From IMG/VR virus record IMGVR_UViG_3300012322_000001: DNA of 41,092 nucleotides; one strand, written 5' to 3'. The notes under the pieces were generated by a model. That model saw nothing but the letters and a program-made list of their open reading frames with translations. It was not told the origin of the DNA and did not search any database. A program made the translations under genes and the position numbers. Origin of the DNA: a virus. Below are positions 4,190 through 41,092 of this stretch, piece by piece; the stretch's first letter is position 1, and the number at the start of each line of letters is the position of its first letter.

Positions 4190-5002
4190 TCAGGGAAGGT
4201 GACACTCGCAGGGGAGGGATTCCTGCATGACGTTGATGCGGATGATCTTGTTGGCCTGGGCCCAAAACCGTTGGTGCGGGATGTGCTCAGTTGCAGGAAT
4301 ACCGTTCGCCTTCATCGCCGCAAACTTCGGCTCCATGTCTTCGAGGTACACCGGCTTGTCGCCGTCCCAGTGGATTGCGTGGCCTATCTCGTCCTCTGCC
4401 CACTTGGCCTTGAGCCAGATATCAGGGCGGATGCAATAGACGATGTACCAGTGCTGCCATCCGGCTTTGAGGCAGCCGATACAGTTGCCGTGCTTGAAGA
4501 CGCCGTAGGTGCATGGGCGCGGGATGCCAAGGGCCTCCGTGCTGTCGTGCTTGCGGTCGGCCCAAAGGCGCGGATAGTCGGTCTGCCAGCCCAGGGTGCC
4601 CATGATCCCGGTGCGGCGTTGGATGCGTGCCGGTTCCGTGGCGTCGAAGCCGTAGTAGATGACGCTCTCATCTTGGCTCGCATTTGCTGCAAGCCACTCC
4701 ATGAACGGCTCGGTCTTGAGGCGTGCAGTGCAGATCTCCTGCCCATTGTTGACTTTGAATGCATTGGATTCCACTGTCACGTCGAACTGGTCTTGCGTGG
4801 CGTTACGCCGGTTGGCGAATGTCAACGGCACGTCCAGGTGCTCGGCCACGTCGCGCTTGAAGCGCTTGATGTCCGCATGCTCGACGCTGAAGTGCATGTC
4901 GTGGTTGAGCAGCACCAGGTTCTTTGTGCCAAAGCGGTGGGCCACGTCCAGCGCGACCAGGGCCGAGCTGTGCCCGCCCGAGTAGCAGACGATGTGCTGC
5001 AT
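4190..5002 (-). CDS. PAPS reductase-like / PP-loop ATP pyrophosphatase family protein, 270 aa
   Basis: The N-terminal IVCYSGGHSSA resembles the SGGxDS PP-loop. Size and layout fit phage PAPS-reductase-like proteins. There is a C-terminal CIGC motif. Confidence 0.7.
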   Translation of the reverse strand: MQHIVCYSGGHSSALVALDVAHRFGTKNLVLLNHDMHFSVEHADIKRFKRDVAEHLDVPLTFANRRNATQDQFDVTVESNAFKVNNGQEICTARLKTEPFMEWLAANASQDESVIYYGFDATEPARIQRRTGIMGTLGWQTDYPRLWADRKHDSTEALGIPRPCTYGVFKHGNCIGCLKAGWQHWYIVYCIRPDIWLKAKWAEDEIGHAIHWDGDKPVYLEDMEPKFAAMKANGIPATEHIPHQRFWAQANKIIRINVMQESLPCECHLP

Positions 5003-11822: not shown

Positions 11823-12527
11823 TTAAAGCTTCTGGCCATTCCAAGCCCAGAGCACACGCCCCAGGACGTTCAATTCCTCGCGCCCATCAAGCACATCCAC
11901 AGTCTTGATGGACGGGTTATCGCTGCTGATCTCAAAGCTCCCGTCGTACTTCTGTCGCACGCGCTTGATGAAAACCCGCCCGTGCCCCTCAAGCACATAT
12001 ACGCCATCAATCGTTGGGTCTTTGATCCCCGTGTCCACCAGGAGCACATCCCCATCGTTGTAGGTTCCTTTCATGGAGTCGCCGTAGCCATGAATGAACC
12101 TCAGCGCCCGCAAGCTGGACGGCCGGATGCGCTGCTGAAGCCAGGAGCGCGAGATTGGCAGGTCGCCTGTGAAGACCTCGCCATCAAGGCCGTCATCGCC
12201 CTGGCCCATAGAGCCTGAGTTCGCCAGCAAAGGAACCATCAGCGTGTCCTCTTCGTTTTGCCGGGATGGCGCAAGCGCTGGCACCTCGATCACCTGGACG
12301 CGGCCCATTGGCCCCTCCCCAAGGGCAAGCCAGTCAGAAGCCACATTCAGTTCACGCGCCGCCACGGCGTTGTTCTCGGCGCTGAAAGTCTTGCTCAGAC
12401 CCTCAACCACCTTTCGCGCTGCTTGATAGGACACGCCAAGACGCTTCGCAAGCTCCTTGGTGTCCATCTTTGCAGCGGTCATTGCCTCGTTCAGGCGCTC
12501 TCTGTAATCAACCATGGTTGTGATCAT
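11823..12527 (-). CDS. cI: cI-type repressor (N-terminal HTH plus C-terminal S24/LexA-like autopeptidase)
   Basis: The HTH is TKELAKRLGVSYQAARKVVEG. The S24 motifs are GDSM (Ser) and FIKRV (Lys). It is divergent from a cro-like gene across operator repeats. The start is ambiguous (ATG at 12527 or 12515) and no SD is visible, so the leader may be short or absent. Confidence 0.85.
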   Translation of the reverse strand: MITTMVDYRERLNEAMTAAKMDTKELAKRLGVSYQAARKVVEGLSKTFSAENNAVAARELNVASDWLALGEGPMGRVQVIEVPALAPSRQNEEDTLMVPLLANSGSMGQGDDGLDGEVFTGDLPISRSWLQQRIRPSSLRALRFIHGYGDSMKGTYNDGDVLLVDTGIKDPTIDGVYVLEGHGRVFIKRVRQKYDGSFEISSDNPSIKTVDVLDGREELNVLGRVLWAWNGQKL

Positions 12528-12542
12528 TGGTTGTTTCAAGAA

Positions 12543-12575
12543 AACTATAGTTTCCTTTGTGCGTGAACTATGGTT
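12543..12575. promoter_or_regulatory. Operator set OR in the cI/cro divergent region
   Basis: AACTATAGTT at 12543-12552 and AACTATGGTT at 12566-12575, 23 bp apart. Both lie between the cI start (12527) and the cro start (12586). Confidence 0.7.
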
Positions 12576-12585
12576 AAATGAACGC

Positions 12586-12801
12586 ATGACGATCCAGAAA
12601 ACCGATGCCATAGCTGTGCTGGGCGGCTCGAAGCGCGATGCTGCTTCGGCCCTCGGCGTGTCCTACCAGGCCATTGACAAGTGGCCGGAGACCTTGAGCA
12701 ACAAGGTCGCTGATCGCGTGCTCGCTGCGTGGGCGCGGAGGAACGTGAAGAACCTCCCTGGGCCGTTCCGCACAGCCAAGCAAAAAACCACCTCCCGCTA
12801 A
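12586..12801 (+). CDS. cro: Cro-like small HTH regulator, 71 aa
   Basis: Track ORF 12514-12801 trimmed to MTIQKTDAIAVLGGSKRDAASALGVSYQAIDKW, an HTH. It is divergent from cI. Confidence 0.75.
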   Translation: MTIQKTDAIAVLGGSKRDAASALGVSYQAIDKWPETLSNKVADRVLAAWARRNVKNLPGPFRTAKQKTTSR

Positions 12802-18005: not shown

Positions 18006-18398
18006 ATGCTGATGAAAGCATACGTTGACTACAACCTCATCAAAGCCGAGCACGAAGAGATCCACGTCAGGCTCCAGAACTGGGCGCGGTGGGTCCGCGG
18101 AGGCAATACCGCCCTATCGCACCCCATGTGGCGCTTCTTCAAAGAGAAGGAGGCCAGTGAGTCCGTCCCGCTGGATCACATCCCAATCAACAGCCTGGAT
18201 GCCCACGCGCTAGAAAAGCTCGTCGTTGATCTCCCAGAGAAGCAGCGCCACGCAGTCCGCTGGTGGTACGTCTACGCCAACAACCCCAGGAAAGCGGCCA
18301 AGCTTTTGGGCGTCACGATGGACGCGCTGAACGAACTGGTGCATGACGCCAGAACGATGCTGAAAAACCGCGCAAAGCCAGTTGCAATTCGCAAATGA
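18006..18398 (+). CDS. Q-like late-gene regulator (putative antiterminator), 130 aa
   Basis: LQNWARWVRGG...DAHALEKLVVDLPEKQRHAVRWWYVYANNPRKAAKLLGV resembles the phage antitermination-Q layout (LERWGAW...DDDA...YY). It is the last gene of the early-right operon. Confidence 0.55.
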   Translation: MLMKAYVDYNLIKAEHEEIHVRLQNWARWVRGGNTALSHPMWRFFKEKEASESVPLDHIPINSLDAHALEKLVVDLPEKQRHAVRWWYVYANNPRKAAKLLGVTMDALNELVHDARTMLKNRAKPVAIRK

Positions 18399-18475
18399 TT
18401 CTGGTAACGTGGCAGCCATCGTTAGCAACAGCACTAGAACGTCCCGGTTTGCGCCGGGATAGGTGCGAGCAACAC

Positions 18476-18507
18476 AAAGCCCTGACCAGAAATGGCCGGG
18501 GCTTTTT
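18476..18507. terminator. Hairpin terminator between the convergent Q-like gene and the reverse cassette (T5 on the plus strand; weaker T-rich tail on the minus strand)
   Basis: AAAGCCC-TGACCA-GAAA-TGGCCG-GGGCTTT followed by TTTTT on the plus strand. On the minus strand it is followed by GTGTT. Confidence 0.7.
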
Positions 18508-18571
18508 CATTTCCGCAGGGCGGCACTAACCCCTCAAGCCCTCCTCCTCCGAGTGCTTAGCCCTGCACCCA

Positions 18572-18751
18572 TCAAGCAACAGCAAGCCCAGCATCAATAG
18601 CTGCGCATGCCAGAGCAAGCCACCGGGGCAAGACCTCGGCGGACGAGAGATAGCGCGCGTAGGTCGCTCGGCTCATGCCAAGCGCCTCCGCTGCAGTGTT
18701 GTATGTGTAGCTATGGCGAGATTGCCAGGCGCGTAGGTCAGTAGTGTTCAT
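18572..18751 (-). CDS. Mini-HTH regulator, 59 aa (Aca-like or antitoxin-like), third gene of the reverse cassette
   Basis: Hand translation: MNTTDLRAWQSRHSYTYNTAAEALGMSRATYARYLSSAEVLPRWLALACAAIDAGLAVA. ATGA overlap with the upstream gene at 18748-18751. Below the track cutoff. Confidence 0.6.
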   Translation of the reverse strand: MNTTDLRAWQSRHSYTYNTAAEALGMSRATYARYLSSAEVLPRWLALACAAIDAGLAVA

Positions 18752-19104
18752 CGTGGTTTTGCTCTTGGGGCTGACATGAATGCTCCGCGACGTTTCCAGT
18801 CGCCCGCATTGTGTGTTGTTGGAAGCCCTTGCCGCACAACCCAGTCGTGGAAGGACTCGGCTATTTCAGCAACACGGTTTCGTTCAGAAGCTCTGATGTA
18901 ATCGCCAGACTTGAGCTTCTCTGCAACGACCAGGCAGAAGTCCTGCTCATGTGCTGGAGGAGCGCGCACTGTAACAACCTGCTGGATGGGCTGCTCCAGC
19001 CGCGTCTGAGGTTGAGAGAGGCGCATCTCAAGTTCTGCAGCGACATCGCGCATGAGCTTGAGTAGGCCCGGCGTGGAGATTTCGGGGAGTTTGATGATCT
19101 GCAT
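18748..19104 (-). CDS. Hypothetical protein, 118 aa, second gene of the reverse cassette
   Basis: Track ORF 18748-19398 trimmed to MQIIKLPEIS, starting 1 nt after the upstream stop. No recognisable motif. Confidence 0.65.
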   Translation of the reverse strand: MQIIKLPEISTPGLLKLMRDVAAELEMRLSQPQTRLEQPIQQVVTVRAPPAHEQDFCLVVAEKLKSGDYIRASERNRVAEIAESFHDWVVRQGLPTTHNAGDWKRRGAFMSAPRAKPR

Positions 19105-19105
19105 G

Positions 19106-19402
19106 TCAGTCGTACTTGTAGACATCTTCATCTTCGGGTGTAGTCGAGGGCAGATCGCTCGAATGGTGCAGCTTGCCATCTGAGTCCAGATAGAACTTGC
19201 CGTCGTACCAGCCTGTGTAATCGTCAGCATCCCATTTCTTGCGTTGCTCTTCGAGCGTGCTGGAGTATTCAACGATCTTGGCATCTGGATGAACCAGAGC
19301 AAGCCAGGAGCGATTCCTCTCGAACTCTGCTTCAGCGTCTGCACGGGTGTAGAGGTATCCGCTGAACACGACGCCATTGCCACGGACAAAGATTGCAAAC
19401 AT
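19106..19402 (-). CDS. Hypothetical protein, 98 aa (acidic C-terminal tail), first gene of the reverse cassette
   Basis: Track ORF 19106-19429 trimmed to MFAIFVRGNG, with AAGGGG 6 nt upstream. No recognisable motif. The gene is lower in GC than the flanks. Confidence 0.65.
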   Translation of the reverse strand: MFAIFVRGNGVVFSGYLYTRADAEAEFERNRSWLALVHPDAKIVEYSSTLEEQRKKWDADDYTGWYDGKFYLDSDGKLHHSSDLPSTTPEDEDVYKYD

Positions 19403-19446
19403 TTCGATCCCCTTGGTTGTGGCGTTCAACGTGTCGCCATGGGTTT

Positions 19447-19475
19447 AATGTAGTCTCAATATGAGACTGCGTCAA
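19447..19475 (-). promoter_or_regulatory. Putative promoter of the reverse cassette with an embedded palindromic operator
   Basis: On the minus strand, TTGACG (19470-19475), 17 nt, TACATT (19447-19452). The spacer holds the inverted repeat AGTCTCA-ATA-TGAGACT (19452-19468). Confidence 0.55.
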
Positions 19476-19497: not shown

Positions 19498-19824
19498 ATG
19501 AGCGACGAACCGAAAAATACGGGACGGTTCGCCAAAGGAAACCCCGGGAAGCCAAAGGGCGCGACGAACAAGGTGACGCGCGAATTCAAGGCCACTGTGC
19601 AGAAGCTTCTTGAGGACAACGAGGCGAATGTCGGGAAGTGGCTGAGACAAGTTGCCGAGGGTGAAGGCGATGTGAAGCCGGACCCTGCAAAGGCCCTTGA
19701 CCTTCTTGCCAAGCTCGCCGAGTACGCAGCTCCAAAGCTGAACCGCACAGAGCACGCTGGCGACGGTGGCGGCCCAGTGAAGTTCCAACAGGTCCGCCGG
19801 ACCATCGTAGACCCAACCAAATGA
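19498..19824 (+). CDS. terS: Terminase small subunit (putative), 108 aa
   Basis: Track ORF 19480-19824 trimmed to the ATG at 19498 (MSDEPKNTGRFAKGNPGKPKG). A small basic protein directly upstream of, and overlapping, the large terminase. Confidence 0.6.
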   Translation: MSDEPKNTGRFAKGNPGKPKGATNKVTREFKATVQKLLEDNEANVGKWLRQVAEGEGDVKPDPAKALDLLAKLAEYAAPKLNRTEHAGDGGGPVKFQQVRRTIVDPTK

Positions 19825-21116
19825 GCACACTGGACTTGCAGACGGCGCGCGTGTTCGTGCCGCTGCTTGAGCCTGCGCGCGACAAAGCTGCATGGGGTGG
19901 GCGAGGCAGTGGCAAGAGCCATTTCTTCGCTGAGTTGCTCATTGAGGACAGTCTTGCAGAGCCAGGCGAGTCTGGTGAAGGTTTGCGCTCTGTATGCATC
20001 CGAGAGGTGCAGAAGGATCTGGCTCAGTCCTCGAAGCTGCTGATCGAAACGAAGCTCAACCGCTTGGGACTGAGTGAAGCAGACGGCTTCAAGGTGTTCA
20101 AGGACGTGATCCAGACGCCTGGCGACGGTCTGATCATCTTCAAGGGCATGAACGACTACACGGCCGACAGCATCAAGTCGCTGGAAGGCTTCAAGCGTTC
20201 ATGGTGGGAAGAGGCGCACGGCGCAACGAAGACGAGCATCAATCTGCTGCGACCAACGATGCGCGCGACAGGCTCGCAGATGTGGTGGTCATGGAACCCG
20301 CGCCGCAAGTCCGATGCTGTGGACGTGATGTTCCGTGGTGGCGAGAAGCCTGCCAAGGCCATCGTGGTCAAGGCCAATTGGCGCGACAACCCATGGCTGA
20401 CACAAGAGCTTGAAGACGAGCGCATTGACTGCCTGCGCATGCAACCGGAGCAGTACGACCACATCTGGGAAGGTGGATACGCGACGTTGAATGAAGGCGC
20501 GTACTTCGCAAAACACATCGCAGAGGCAAGGCAGCAGAACCGCATCGGGCGTGTGGCTGCTGATCCGCTGATGACGTTGCGTGCATTCGTGGACATTGGC
20601 GGCACAGGCGCCAGGGCTGATGCCTTTGCCATGTGGATCGCTCAGTTCGTTGGCAAAGAGATTCGAGTGCTCGACTACTACGAGCAAGTGGGCCAGCCGC
20701 TCTCATCGCACTTGAACTGGATGCGAGAGCACAGCTACGACAAGGCCCAGATCTGGCTGCCACACGATGGCGCCACTCAAGACAAAGTGCACGACGTTTC
20801 CTATGAGTCCGCGCTCAGGCAAGCGGGCTACACGGTCACGGTCGTGCCGAACCAGGGTAAGGGCGCTGCCAAGGCTCGCATTGAAGCAGGCCGGCGCCTG
20901 TTCGGATCGATGTGGTTCAACGAGGCCACGACTCAGCCCGGGCTTGAGGCGCTGGGCTGGTATCACGAGAAGCGAGACGAGCAGCGCGGCATCGGCCTAG
21001 GCCCAGAACACGACTGGTCGAGCCACGGTGCTGATGCATTTGGCTTGATGGCAGTCGCATACGAAGAGCCTGTGACCCGCAAGAAGCTGGTCTACAAAAA
21101 CATGGGATACGCATAA
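19821..21116 (+). CDS. terL: Terminase large subunit, 431 aa
   Basis: Walker A-like WGGRGSGKSH, followed by a nuclease-type C-terminal half (FVDIGGTG...D..A). Size and position are typical. Confidence 0.9.
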   Translation: MSTLDLQTARVFVPLLEPARDKAAWGGRGSGKSHFFAELLIEDSLAEPGESGEGLRSVCIREVQKDLAQSSKLLIETKLNRLGLSEADGFKVFKDVIQTPGDGLIIFKGMNDYTADSIKSLEGFKRSWWEEAHGATKTSINLLRPTMRATGSQMWWSWNPRRKSDAVDVMFRGGEKPAKAIVVKANWRDNPWLTQELEDERIDCLRMQPEQYDHIWEGGYATLNEGAYFAKHIAEARQQNRIGRVAADPLMTLRAFVDIGGTGARADAFAMWIAQFVGKEIRVLDYYEQVGQPLSSHLNWMREHSYDKAQIWLPHDGATQDKVHDVSYESALRQAGYTVTVVPNQGKGAAKARIEAGRRLFGSMWFNEATTQPGLEALGWYHEKRDEQRGIGLGPEHDWSSHGADAFGLMAVAYEEPVTRKKLVYKNMGYA

Positions 21117-39864: not shown

Positions 39865-40524
39865 ATGGCAGGACTACTCGGAGAGATCTTCAGCCAAGGG
39901 GACCGCGCGAAGCGATTCATTGGCGGCCTGCTGGGTGATCCCATCGGGACCATGGCTCAGACTGCCGGGTTGCTCGGCGACTTCCGCCGTGATGACCAGG
40001 CGCTGAACGCTCGAGCTTTTGCAGATCCTGCAAATCCCCTTCGGGTCACTGACCCATCCGCGATGCATCAGCTTGGTGATCGTATGCTTGCAGGTCCACT
40101 ATCCATGGCGCCTGTTGGCATGATCGGAGCCACATTCCCGCAGCAAGTCGATGAGCTGTTGCAGCAGATCACTTCCCTCCCCAAGGGTCAGCGGGCTGGC
40201 GTCCGTTTGCTTCCTGACGATGTGCCTACTCCGAACATCGGGGATGTGTTGTCGCCATCTTTCAAGTGGGCGGACGGCGTGCGTCAAGAACGTACTTTGC
40301 CAGGCACATCTGCGATGGATGTAAGCGGCAGAACACGCGGAGAAGTTGAGGCCGCTGTTCGGCGCCTTGGCTTGTTCAACACGCCAGGACAAGGCTACTA
40401 TCCTGGCAACAAGCTCGCCGTGATCTCTGGCGCGTCCAAGCGCAAGGGCGAAGATGTTGGAGAGACGATGATCAAAGACGCCATCGTCCGCTACCTCACA
40501 GATCCACCACTCGGGCCGCGCTAA
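39865..40524 (+). CDS. Hypothetical protein, 219 aa (N-terminus MAGLLGEIF), last late gene before attP
   Basis: Track ORF. AGGAGG lies upstream of the ATG. Confidence 0.65.
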   Translation: MAGLLGEIFSQGDRAKRFIGGLLGDPIGTMAQTAGLLGDFRRDDQALNARAFADPANPLRVTDPSAMHQLGDRMLAGPLSMAPVGMIGATFPQQVDELLQQITSLPKGQRAGVRLLPDDVPTPNIGDVLSPSFKWADGVRQERTLPGTSAMDVSGRTRGEVEAAVRRLGLFNTPGQGYYPGNKLAVISGASKRKGEDVGETMIKDAIVRYLTDPPLGPR

Positions 40525-40526
40525 TT

Positions 40527-40542
40527 GGTGGGGGGATTTTTG
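40527..40542 (+). repeat. Direct repeat GGTGGGGGGATTTTTG (candidate integrase arm-type site, copy 1)
   Basis: A near-identical copy lies at 40761-40775. The two copies flank the tRNA-derived core. Confidence 0.4.
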
Positions 40543-40641
40543 ACACAGACCCCGCACAGGCTTCACAGAATGCGGCTTCCGCACTCGCCCAAGCCCATGT
40601 AGATCAACAACTTGCGGCATCTGCACTGTCTGCGTACAAAA

Positions 40642-40699
<58 letters not shown>

Positions 40700-40705
40700 A
40701 GATGC

Positions 40706-40751
40706 AAGCCGCTTGAGTGCTATCAAATAGATAGTCTCAAGCGGCTTTTTT
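40706..40751 (+). terminator. Long hairpin followed by a T-run after the tRNA fragment; it overlaps the integrase stop codon
   Basis: AAGCCGCTTGAG ... CTCAAGCGGCTT (12 bp, with inner CTATC/GATAG pairing) followed by TTTT. The int stop (40737-40739) lies in the 3' arm. Confidence 0.6.
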
Positions 40752-41092
40752 GCGCTCTGCGGTGGGGGATTTTTGCCCTATCTTTTTGATCGCAAGATCG
40801 AGGGATCTTGTTGCCAGGTGGGAGTACCTAGCTGTACTCCGCTGATCACGATGTCCGAGCACGGCCCCCACGGTGTAGAGGTCGATGTCGTTGTTGATCA
40901 TCTCCGACGCCGCCGAGTGCCGCAGATCGTGGAAGTGCAGATCCTTGTGCCCTAGCGCCCTGGCCGCCTCGCGAAAGTACGACTGCACCGTAATCTTTGC
41001 AGGCTTGCGCGACGTGTTGTGCGCTGCCGTCCAGACTCGGGGATGAATCGGGACGATGCGCGGCTCGCCGTTCTTCGTGTCGTCCAAGTGCC
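40737..41092 (-). CDS. int: Tyrosine integrase, 3' portion (catalytic C-terminus)
   Basis: HDLRHSAAS, LGH and ARYSH (the H-x-x-R, H and Y of the tyrosine recombinase catalytic set). It is in frame with 1-773 through the 127-nt overlap. Confidence 0.9.
   Translation of the reverse strand, partial: HLDDTKNGEPRIVPIHPRVWTAAHNTSRKPAKITVQSYFREAARALGHKDLHFHDLRHSAASEMINNDIDLYTVGAVLGHRDQRSTARYSHLATRSLDLAIKKIGQKSPTAERKKAA
40761..40775 (+). repeat. Direct repeat GGTGGGGGATTTTTG (candidate arm-type site, copy 2; inside the int 3' end)
   Basis: Matches 40527-40542 except for one extra G in copy 1. Confidence 0.4.
40966..41092. repeat. Terminal overlap copy 2 (identical to 1-127)
   Basis: See 1-127. Confidence 0.95.

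Follow-up and report, generated by a model that had tools for sequence, protein, structure and literature searches.

In acr-aca1 operons, as a 2026 study describes them, an inverted repeat of ~20 nt right after the transcription start forms a hairpin that is bound by Aca1 and that ends ~20 nt before the start codon, and Aca proteins often control adjoining operons as well (PMC13551039). In the acrIF1-aca1 operon of Pseudomonas phage JBD30, the palindrome IR2 has been crystallised with Aca1, is bound by it and mediates repression (PMC8633003). Here we analyse IMG/VR virus record IMGVR_UViG_3300012322_000001 (41,092 nucleotides; this whole stretch is referred to as the window), a complete lambdoid temperate phage genome of ~41 kb recovered as one whole contig (JGI 3300011487 Ga0118590_100002), in which three small minus-strand genes and their control region (18572-19475) form a cassette laid out like an acr-aca1 operon. 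The cassette is a mobile accessory operon of this phage; it is probably an Aca-type, self-regulated operon whose last gene represents a new Aca-like helix-turn-helix (HTH) family, with uncharacterised cargo. The term acr-aca-type therefore describes the control of the operon, and for the cargo it names the most likely class only. Our best explanation overall is that the cassette is controlled like an acr-aca1 operon and that its cargo acts early against host immunity, a reading that we put forward tentatively.

The three genes were found at the coordinates given in a preliminary description of this DNA, which had been made from the letters alone. Open reading frame (ORF) 1 (19106-19402, 98 aa from its ATG, with a TTG-extended form reaching 19429) holds the first cargo position and is followed by ORF2 (18748-19104, 118 aa) and by a 59-aa XRE-type HTH gene (18572-18751), the predicted autorepressor, whose start overlaps the ORF2 stop. 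The junctions show the translational coupling claimed for them (GAC TGA C ATG between ORF1 and ORF2; CGATGAAC, an ATGA overlap, between ORF2 and the HTH gene). A Shine-Dalgarno-like AAGGGGA lies 5 nt upstream of the ORF1 ATG and none precedes ORF2 or the HTH gene, so that both of the latter probably rely on coupling. ORF2 and the HTH gene are real genes, with a ratio of non-synonymous to synonymous substitution rates (dN/dS) of 0.05-0.08 that reflects, for ORF2, strong purifying selection; ORF1 has too few substitutions for such an estimate and is intact in a second phage. An antisense ORF inside ORF2 (18811-19065, plus strand), proposed by a gene caller based on third-position GC (GC3), was rejected as an artefact given the conservation of ORF2. 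The reading of the last gene as a minimal HTH also held (Pfam HTH_31, E 4.5e-6, 27.3 bits against a cut-off of 27.0), as did the lower GC of the cassette, 0.50-0.55 against ~0.56-0.62 in the flanks (~0.56-0.58 on the side of the Q-like gene and 0.58-0.62 on that of the terminase), with values of up to 0.68 further upstream.

The control region can be compared with that of JBD30 acrIF1-aca1 element by element. The promoter scan located the sigma-70-like promoter previously described (19447-19475, minus strand), with a -35 box TTGACG (19475-19470), a 17-nt spacer and a -10 box TACATT (19452-19447); taken alone it is not significant, since one such promoter was found against 0.6 expected. The spacer is filled by the inverted repeat already recognised there, a perfect 17-bp palindrome (AGTCTCA-ATA-TGAGACT, 19452-19468) that is the sole copy in the window and constitutes the predicted operator, its last base being the first T of the -10 box. 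An RNA role of this palindrome is ruled out, as it lies upstream of the transcription start. Just 3' of a conserved CA(U) at the predicted transcription start is a leader hairpin (19420-19439, minus strand, UGGCGACACGUUGAACGCCA) that ends 17 nt upstream of the ORF1 ATG. The cassette has, in these two elements, the Aca1-type combination of an operator overlapping the -10 box and a leader hairpin, binding of the RNA by the HTH being putative. The same features characterise JBD30: a TTGNNN -35 box and, 1-2 nt further on, a 17-bp palindrome that runs into the -10 box, a CATG at the predicted start followed by a ~20-nt hairpin ending ~20 nt before the start codon, and small cargo gene(s) with a small HTH gene behind, its start overlapping the preceding gene. 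In contrast to JBD30, the window has no second upstream repeat (IR1), its HTH lacks the N-terminal extension of Aca1, its cargo is dissimilar to AcrIF1 or any solved Acr, and the hosts are Comamonadaceae, not Pseudomonas. At its other end, the cassette closes on a two-way terminator-like hairpin (18476-18505) in the interval from the stop codon of the HTH gene (18572) to that of the Q-like gene (18398). As had been suggested, this hairpin is common to the cassette and the convergent Q-like gene: it folds on both strands (plus strand, -18.2 kcal/mol, then UUUUUCAUUU; minus strand, -20.1 kcal/mol, then UUUGUGUUG; z ~-2.1), each time with a U-rich tract. A search of Rfam gave no match for the leader or the terminator.

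This arrangement recurs across related loci (designated by L numbers). A strict composite scan looked for TTGNNN and, after a gap of 0-2 nt, a 17-bp palindrome with a -10-like hexamer at its end, the two overlapping. In 659 kb of related loci it yielded 48 sites, where shuffled sequence gave 2.45, so that the pattern greatly exceeds chance; the window contains a single site. The JBD30 acrIF1-aca1 promoter was picked by the same scan (TTGCGA-AT-TAGGCACAATGTGCCTA-ATCTAA, then CATG and a hairpin). The sites are oriented as expected, upstream of cassettes or adjoining operons, and in the first 22 loci they occur nowhere else on either strand. The complete control layout (spacer-filling 17-bp palindrome, hairpin at the transcript start and tightly coupled genes, usually with the HTH gene last) was found in the same form in each of ~25 distinct related cassettes, in which, as in the JBD30 promoter, the -35 and -10 boxes keep their position. 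About half of the more distant HTH loci do not fit the strict pattern; L010, for instance, has an imperfect palindrome at the same place. A scan of the sequence collection for the exact operator of the window added one contig. The leader hairpin is predicted in 24 of 25 cassettes, JBD30 included, right after the conserved CATG. Loop lengths differ among these leaders, and per-sequence folding energies were summed and compared with shuffles: the total is -185.9 kcal/mol against -102 +/- 10.6 (z ~-7.9), with stem sequences that vary by cassette (GGCG/CGCC, GGCAGC/GCUGCC, UGCAC/GUGCA, GGUGAUC/GAUUGCC). As in JBD30, adjoining operons may bear the same operator. A second promoter, operator and leader hairpin stand directly after or before the HTH operon in four loci (L007:5546, L008:5546, L027:5193, L021:1014), where one HTH probably controls tandem operons; in L007 and L008 this second copy precedes a 77-aa gene and a 365-aa gene (phrog_6160, unknown function). 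Two further leader features were observed. The hairpins of the window and JBD30 (L074:305-325) both contain CACA, in the 5' half or in the loop. Several cassettes, the window not being among them, have a second conserved GC-rich hairpin (CCGCCCCGGCGGnnCCGGG or GGCGCCTCCC…GAGGGG) downstream of the first one and ahead of the start codon (L019, L023, L029, L033 and L050; also L016, L017 and L021, at 1014).

At least 127 clusters of proteins 55-88 aa in length, from Comamonadaceae and their phages, make up the family of the 59-aa HTH, and relatives likewise match Pfam HTH_3 and HTH_31; a search of plasmid sequences with the HTH gave no match. Within this family, the recognition helix and the operator change together. 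The helix SRATYARYL, present in the window, L018, L021 and L023, is associated with the half-site AGTCTCA, SSATYARML with ACTCTCA, SRATYANYL with AGTCTAA, GRTTFAEYL with AGTACGG, GRRTYADYL with AGTGCGG and S[WL]ATYKR[YW]L with T[AG]GCTCA. The pattern is clearest for the window and L003, which are nearly identical in their -35 box, -10 box, leader and ORF1, and differ in the four inner half-site bases and in the recognition helix. Such joint variation speaks strongly, if indirectly, for binding of the palindrome by the HTH, and a protein bound to a palindrome that takes up the whole promoter spacer should block transcription. Autorepression by the HTH through this operator is therefore, on comparative grounds, highly probable. 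Whatever the cargo does, the matched series is a specificity code for a very small repressor, and its at least five helix/operator pairs, with 1-4 base differences per half-site, might yield a set of non-interfering repressors.

The HTH thus works like Aca1 in its control layout, but it is not a demonstrable member of Aca1 by sequence. The family hidden Markov model gives Aca1 10.5 bits, compared with 2-6 bits for three control HTH sequences, and the family profile retrieves no Aca chain, Aca1 included, from PDB at E <= 1. The acr-aca1 layout, combining a DNA operator and a 5' RNA hairpin, is in this way extended to a family of HTHs that would not be assigned to Aca1 by a sequence search. The loci of the other Aca families (Aca2-Aca14) and the guilt-by-association acr-aca loci (PMC9410906, PMC13551039) likewise place the repressor last, carry a promoter inverted repeat and variable small genes and reside on mobile elements; the HTH profile retrieves none of the Aca proteins among solved structures, a comparison outside which the sequences of Aca3-9 and Aca11-14 lie. 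What defines such loci was found here too: a conserved HTH, variable small upstream genes, and distribution in phages, prophages and viral contigs. The closest solved relative is the C-terminal HTH domain of PDB 2AUW (NE0471 from Nitrosomonas europaea, E 5.5e-6), which has the segment TAAEALGxSRxxxxxY...PRxxxLAC in common with the HTH; unlike it, NE0471, a structural-genomics target whose function is unknown, has 170 aa and an additional N-terminal domain. Outside phages, the plasmid-borne kilC operon of IncP plasmids (klcA-klcB-korC) includes an anti-restriction gene and ends with a small HTH repressor. KorC-type control involves a palindromic operator in its own and in other promoters, with a burst of expression on entry into a new cell. 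The resemblance to kilC may serve as a lead only.

The survey of related loci that the preliminary description had proposed revealed a conserved HTH and varying upstream genes. Some 48 cassettes encode 137 cargo proteins in 96 families, 74 of them singletons, with a median cargo length of 103 aa; in loci without a detected promoter, cargo was defined by gene chaining and takes in some neighbours (e.g. NinB, NinG and lysis genes). First-position cargo genes are mostly acidic. When representatives of 58 families were scanned, all but a few were unannotated, and the annotated cargo includes orphan DNA methyltransferases. The same cassette is located after the lysis genes in other phages that have nothing but the cassette in common with the window, and a Delftia prophage carries, likewise reversed and again lying between the Q-like gene and the terminase, a 75-aa gene (no match in PDB) with a 90%-identical HTH. 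These ~50 cassettes and their ~96 uncharacterised cargo families are available for screening by association. The commonest HTH-adjacent cargo family is a ribbon-helix-helix (RHH)-like protein (…PIHLRVPAELKALWVRESRA..KLTDWI…) with 11 members in 10 loci (e.g. L019:2846-4014, L029:3801-5014, L033:4473-4919); in L019 and L029 the RHH-like gene comes after a tyrosine-integrase-like gene within the cassette, and the same control module may also drive integration/excision functions.

ORF1 is acidic (isoelectric point 4.6) and ends, in agreement with the acidic tail reported for it, in EDEDVYKYD. Its only relatives are near-identical, the one in the second phage (L003) matching at 94 of 98 aa (96%). 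Between the window and L003, the synonymous divergence (dS) of ORF1 is 0.03 beside 1.46 for the neighbouring ORF2, which indicates recent exchange and a recombination joint. In L007 and L008, the ORF1 body is replaced by an unrelated 100-aa protein and only the last 30 nt, encoding EDDEDDVYKYD, are retained, the homology with the window beginning 30 nt inside the 3' end of ORF1 (19106-19135 versus L007:4967-4999). The tail (E/D)DEDDVYKYD thus occurs on two unrelated bodies, and a distant relative in L009 similarly ends in DDEGDVYDDFVMED. ORF1 found no match in Pfam, PHROGs, PADLOC or NCBIfam, neither ORF1 nor its L007 alternative matched PDB, and the AlphaFold2 model of ORF1 was unusable (predicted local distance difference test, pLDDT, 46).

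ORF2 is basic (isoelectric point 9.6) and confidently predicted to be all-helical (AlphaFold2 pLDDT 84). The statement that neither upstream protein has a recognisable motif holds, and ORF2 too lacks any match in Pfam, PHROGs, PADLOC or NCBIfam; ORF2 is, however, no orphan, its family comprising ~90 clusters. Thirty-five close homologues were identified, and 91 clusters among 1.84 billion representative proteins; the family is a rare, uncharacterised one of mobile-element proteins with the motif RQGLPTTHNAGDWKR. The wider family conserves L14, R28, P49, W88 and P95 only; with so few conserved residues and none of catalytic type, the alignment suggests that ORF2 works by binding and not as an enzyme. 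Among 45 family members scanned, Pfam gave scattered single matches only, the ORF2 profile matched no PDB sequence, and Foldseek found no fold match for the model (best E 2.6 in PDB and 0.8 in BFVD). A scan of genome contigs returned only the Comamonas locus already found. Three kinds of operon contain ORF2: kind A, with a variable gene, ORF2 and the short HTH (the window, L003, L007, L008); kind B, with a variable gene or none, a 226-293-aa protein with a C-terminal HTH, and ORF2 (a Comamonas P2-like prophage, L009, L012-15); and a third, with a 48-aa gene, ORF2, a 148-aa gene and the HTH (L010, L011). An obligatory role of ORF2 as co-regulator of the HTH was ruled out, as most cassettes are without ORF2. 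Homologues also occur on 28 plasmids of Burkholderia glumae or gladioli, mostly conjugative, in an operon of two genes (232 and 128 aa) behind the operator TAGCTCG-ATT-CGAGCTA, ~20 kb past the MobF relaxase operon. The neighbours there are a ParB-N-domain gene, an orphan methyltransferase, DUF932, LPD29 and DUF3560, a gene content that resembles that of a leading region, and LPD29 has been discussed as an anti-defence candidate (PMC13551039). On the B. glumae plasmid pBIN_1, the operon with the ORF2 homologue is directly followed by a defence-like pair of genes, one with a HEPN domain and one for an AAA ATPase, and then by a gene of the H-NS family (L072:7655-9294).

From these elements we propose the following scheme. 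The strong sigma-70 promoter would fire as the DNA enters a repressor-free cell, and one translationally coupled mRNA would yield ORF1, ORF2 and the 59-aa HTH. A dimer of the latter would then bind the spacer-filling 17-bp palindrome and shut the operon off, and the hairpin at the 5' end of the mRNA may provide a second layer of control, through repressor binding or mRNA stability. Late in infection, Q-antiterminated transcription would cross the cassette antisense towards the terminase and should silence it. The cargo, an exchangeable acidic ORF1 and a conserved basic helical ORF2, would most likely act early against host immunity. This assignment follows from the control layout, the turnover of small acidic cargo, the orphan methyltransferases among the cargo and the plasmid neighbourhoods; it rests on association, and we regard an anti-defence function of ORF1 and ORF2 as plausible, a little short of evenly balanced. 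If it is correct, both proteins are new inhibitors of bacterial immunity, and ORF2 is used by phages and conjugative plasmids alike. A more specific version, in which the HTH founds an unnamed Aca family of Comamonadaceae and related Burkholderiales phages with a matched helix/operator series, ORF2 is a new anti-defence effector family shared by phages and conjugative plasmids, and the acidic tail of ORF1 is a docking peptide for ORF2 or a host target, is conceivable and, taken as a whole, rather doubtful. In either form, the outcome is a concrete candidate set and a natural operator-specificity series, not a new principle.

The preliminary description had called the cassette a candidate acr-aca-type anti-defence operon, or else a novel defence or toxin-antitoxin moron. 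As regards layout and regulation, the cargo variation, the operator-helix matching and the JBD30 pattern bear this out; as regards anti-defence activity, no match of family or structure does. Profile searches (Pfam, PHROGs, PADLOC, NCBIfam) assigned ORF1 and ORF2 to no Acr, anti-defence, defence or toxin family, and the structural comparison it had suggested found nothing like the ORF2 model among solved (PDB) or predicted viral (BFVD) structures. Several observations weigh against the anti-defence reading. Known Acr or anti-defence proteins were not matched by the cargo of the window or of related cassettes in Pfam, PHROGs, PDB sequences or Foldseek, and ORF2 has no match in 50,697 sequenced phage genomes. 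Annotated cargo includes a ROS/MucR regulator, RHH-like proteins and, in two cassettes, tyrosine-integrase-like genes, so that the control module alone does not define function. The similarity of the HTH to JBD30 Aca1 (gp36) is slight (BLASTP E 0.003 over 32 aa; hhalign probability 59%, E 9e-5, 49 columns). Of the two strictly conserved DNA-contact residues of Aca1, Arg47 and Arg59 (PMC8633003), the first aligns in hhalign with Ala32, a near-invariant alanine of the HTH family, and the second falls in an alignment gap. The leader hairpin of the window is thermodynamically unremarkable on its own (z -0.09), and across cassettes the hairpin is not coupled to operator specificity: the window and L003 have the same hairpin and different operators, the window and L021 the same operator and different hairpins. 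The Burkholderia plasmid operon is oriented opposite to most of its neighbours. Finally, several cassettes occupy usual moron positions, such as the gap between the tail fibre and sheath genes of the P2-like Alfacinha1. In P2 itself, such positions hold defence genes.

This last point bears on the first alternative, a prophage defence or superinfection-exclusion moron whose self-repressed promoter keeps ORF1 and ORF2 low and steady in lysogens and thereby blocks other phages. The phage is temperate and has a CI-like repressor, the cassette has its own promoter and terminator and a lower GC, related cassettes sit at usual moron positions in prophages, P2-like ones included, and the HEPN and AAA ATPase pair adjoins the plasmid ORF2 operon. 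Against this, ORF1 and ORF2 have no PADLOC match, the proteins are small with no membrane span or lipoprotein signal obvious by eye, ORF2 lacks enzyme-like conserved residues, and a last-gene HTH, a spacer operator and a start-site hairpin are the layout of an anti-defence operon, not of known defence systems. Antisense late transcription would argue for an early or a lysogenic role and does not discriminate between this alternative and the anti-defence reading. Overall we consider a defence function unlikely, and of the two alternatives raised in the preliminary description it emerges weakened.

A further alternative shares with acr-aca operons only the logic of a burst followed by shut-off: an early accessory operon with another role, for instance host takeover or an aid to establishment or recombination, in which ORF2 might be a transcription modulator. 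Such a role would suit the tyrosine-integrase-like, RHH-like and ROS/MucR genes of some related cassettes and the basic, helical character of ORF2, and a published survey finds many unknown or non-Acr genes under Aca control (PMC13551039). However, Foldseek found no DNA-binding or other known fold for ORF2, and small acidic first-position genes turn over to an extreme degree, as is more usual for genes in an arms race; this alternative, too, seems improbable to us.

Least probable by far is a reverse-order type II toxin-antitoxin or abortive-infection module of the HigBA or MqsRA kind, with ORF2 as toxin and the HTH as antitoxin and autorepressor: the toxin-first, HTH-second order, the ATGA overlap, the promoter operator, the position of ORF2 always next to the HTH gene in operons of kinds A and B and the weak matches of the HTH to Xre-like antitoxin models (Pfam Xre-like-HTH, E 0.0014; NCBIfam Xre_ParS, E 0.12) would fit, as would the overlapping genes and self-repressing downstream HTH of HigBA and MqsRA and the published structural resemblance of Aca1 to HigA2 and MqsA (PMC8633003), but the HTH family pairs with 96 unrelated cargo families, integrases and methyltransferases included, a protein of 55-88 aa leaves little room for a toxin-neutralising domain, ORF2 has no catalytic signature and no match to a toxin family or fold, and it is not adjacent to the HTH in L010, L011 and L002. 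The many unrelated HTH partners and the lack of catalytic-type residues in ORF2 thus argue against the toxin-antitoxin option of the preliminary description. In PADLOC, the HTH gives a weak match to mad1 only (E 0.0078).

From left to right, the phage genome encodes an Erf-like recombinase, a CI-like repressor (11823-12611, minus strand), DnaD- and DnaB-like replication proteins, NinB, NinG and a Q-like protein (18006-18398), the last immediately before the reversed cassette. On the other side follow a small ORF at the small-terminase position (19498-19824), whose family matches are DUF5681 and unannotated PHROGs only, the large terminase (19821-21116) and then the portal gene. The 19498 ORF starts 23 nt past the -35 box of the cassette, so close that late transcription from the Q-like gene would have to traverse the cassette antisense. 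A strong hairpin lies within ~80 nt of the end of the Q-like gene (18399-18510). No late promoter was recognised; should it and its terminator sit in this interval, as in lambda, late transcripts would cross the entire cassette antisense to the terminase. A DNA search of the cassette region against known phages matched the terminase genes only.

The early-left arm contains a PAPS-reductase-like gene (4190-5002, minus strand; phrog_424, E 5e-22), a class (DndC/SspD-like) flagged as a candidate for evading restriction-modification and phosphorothioate-based defence (PMC13551039). At the far right end, GC3-based gene calling indicated possible minus-strand ORFs of 64, 175 and 83 aa (39874-40988). 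The cassette was earlier described as the only reversed unit of the right arm; its place between the Q-like gene and the terminase stands, and in view of these possible ORFs at ~39.9-41 kb it may not be the sole one. The phage has been assembled in many metagenomes, also as a 41,020-bp contig at 294x coverage (ENA ERZ1032092), and the exact ORF1 sequence is present in 670 indexed blocks of the sequence collection; it looks like an abundant, actively replicating phage.

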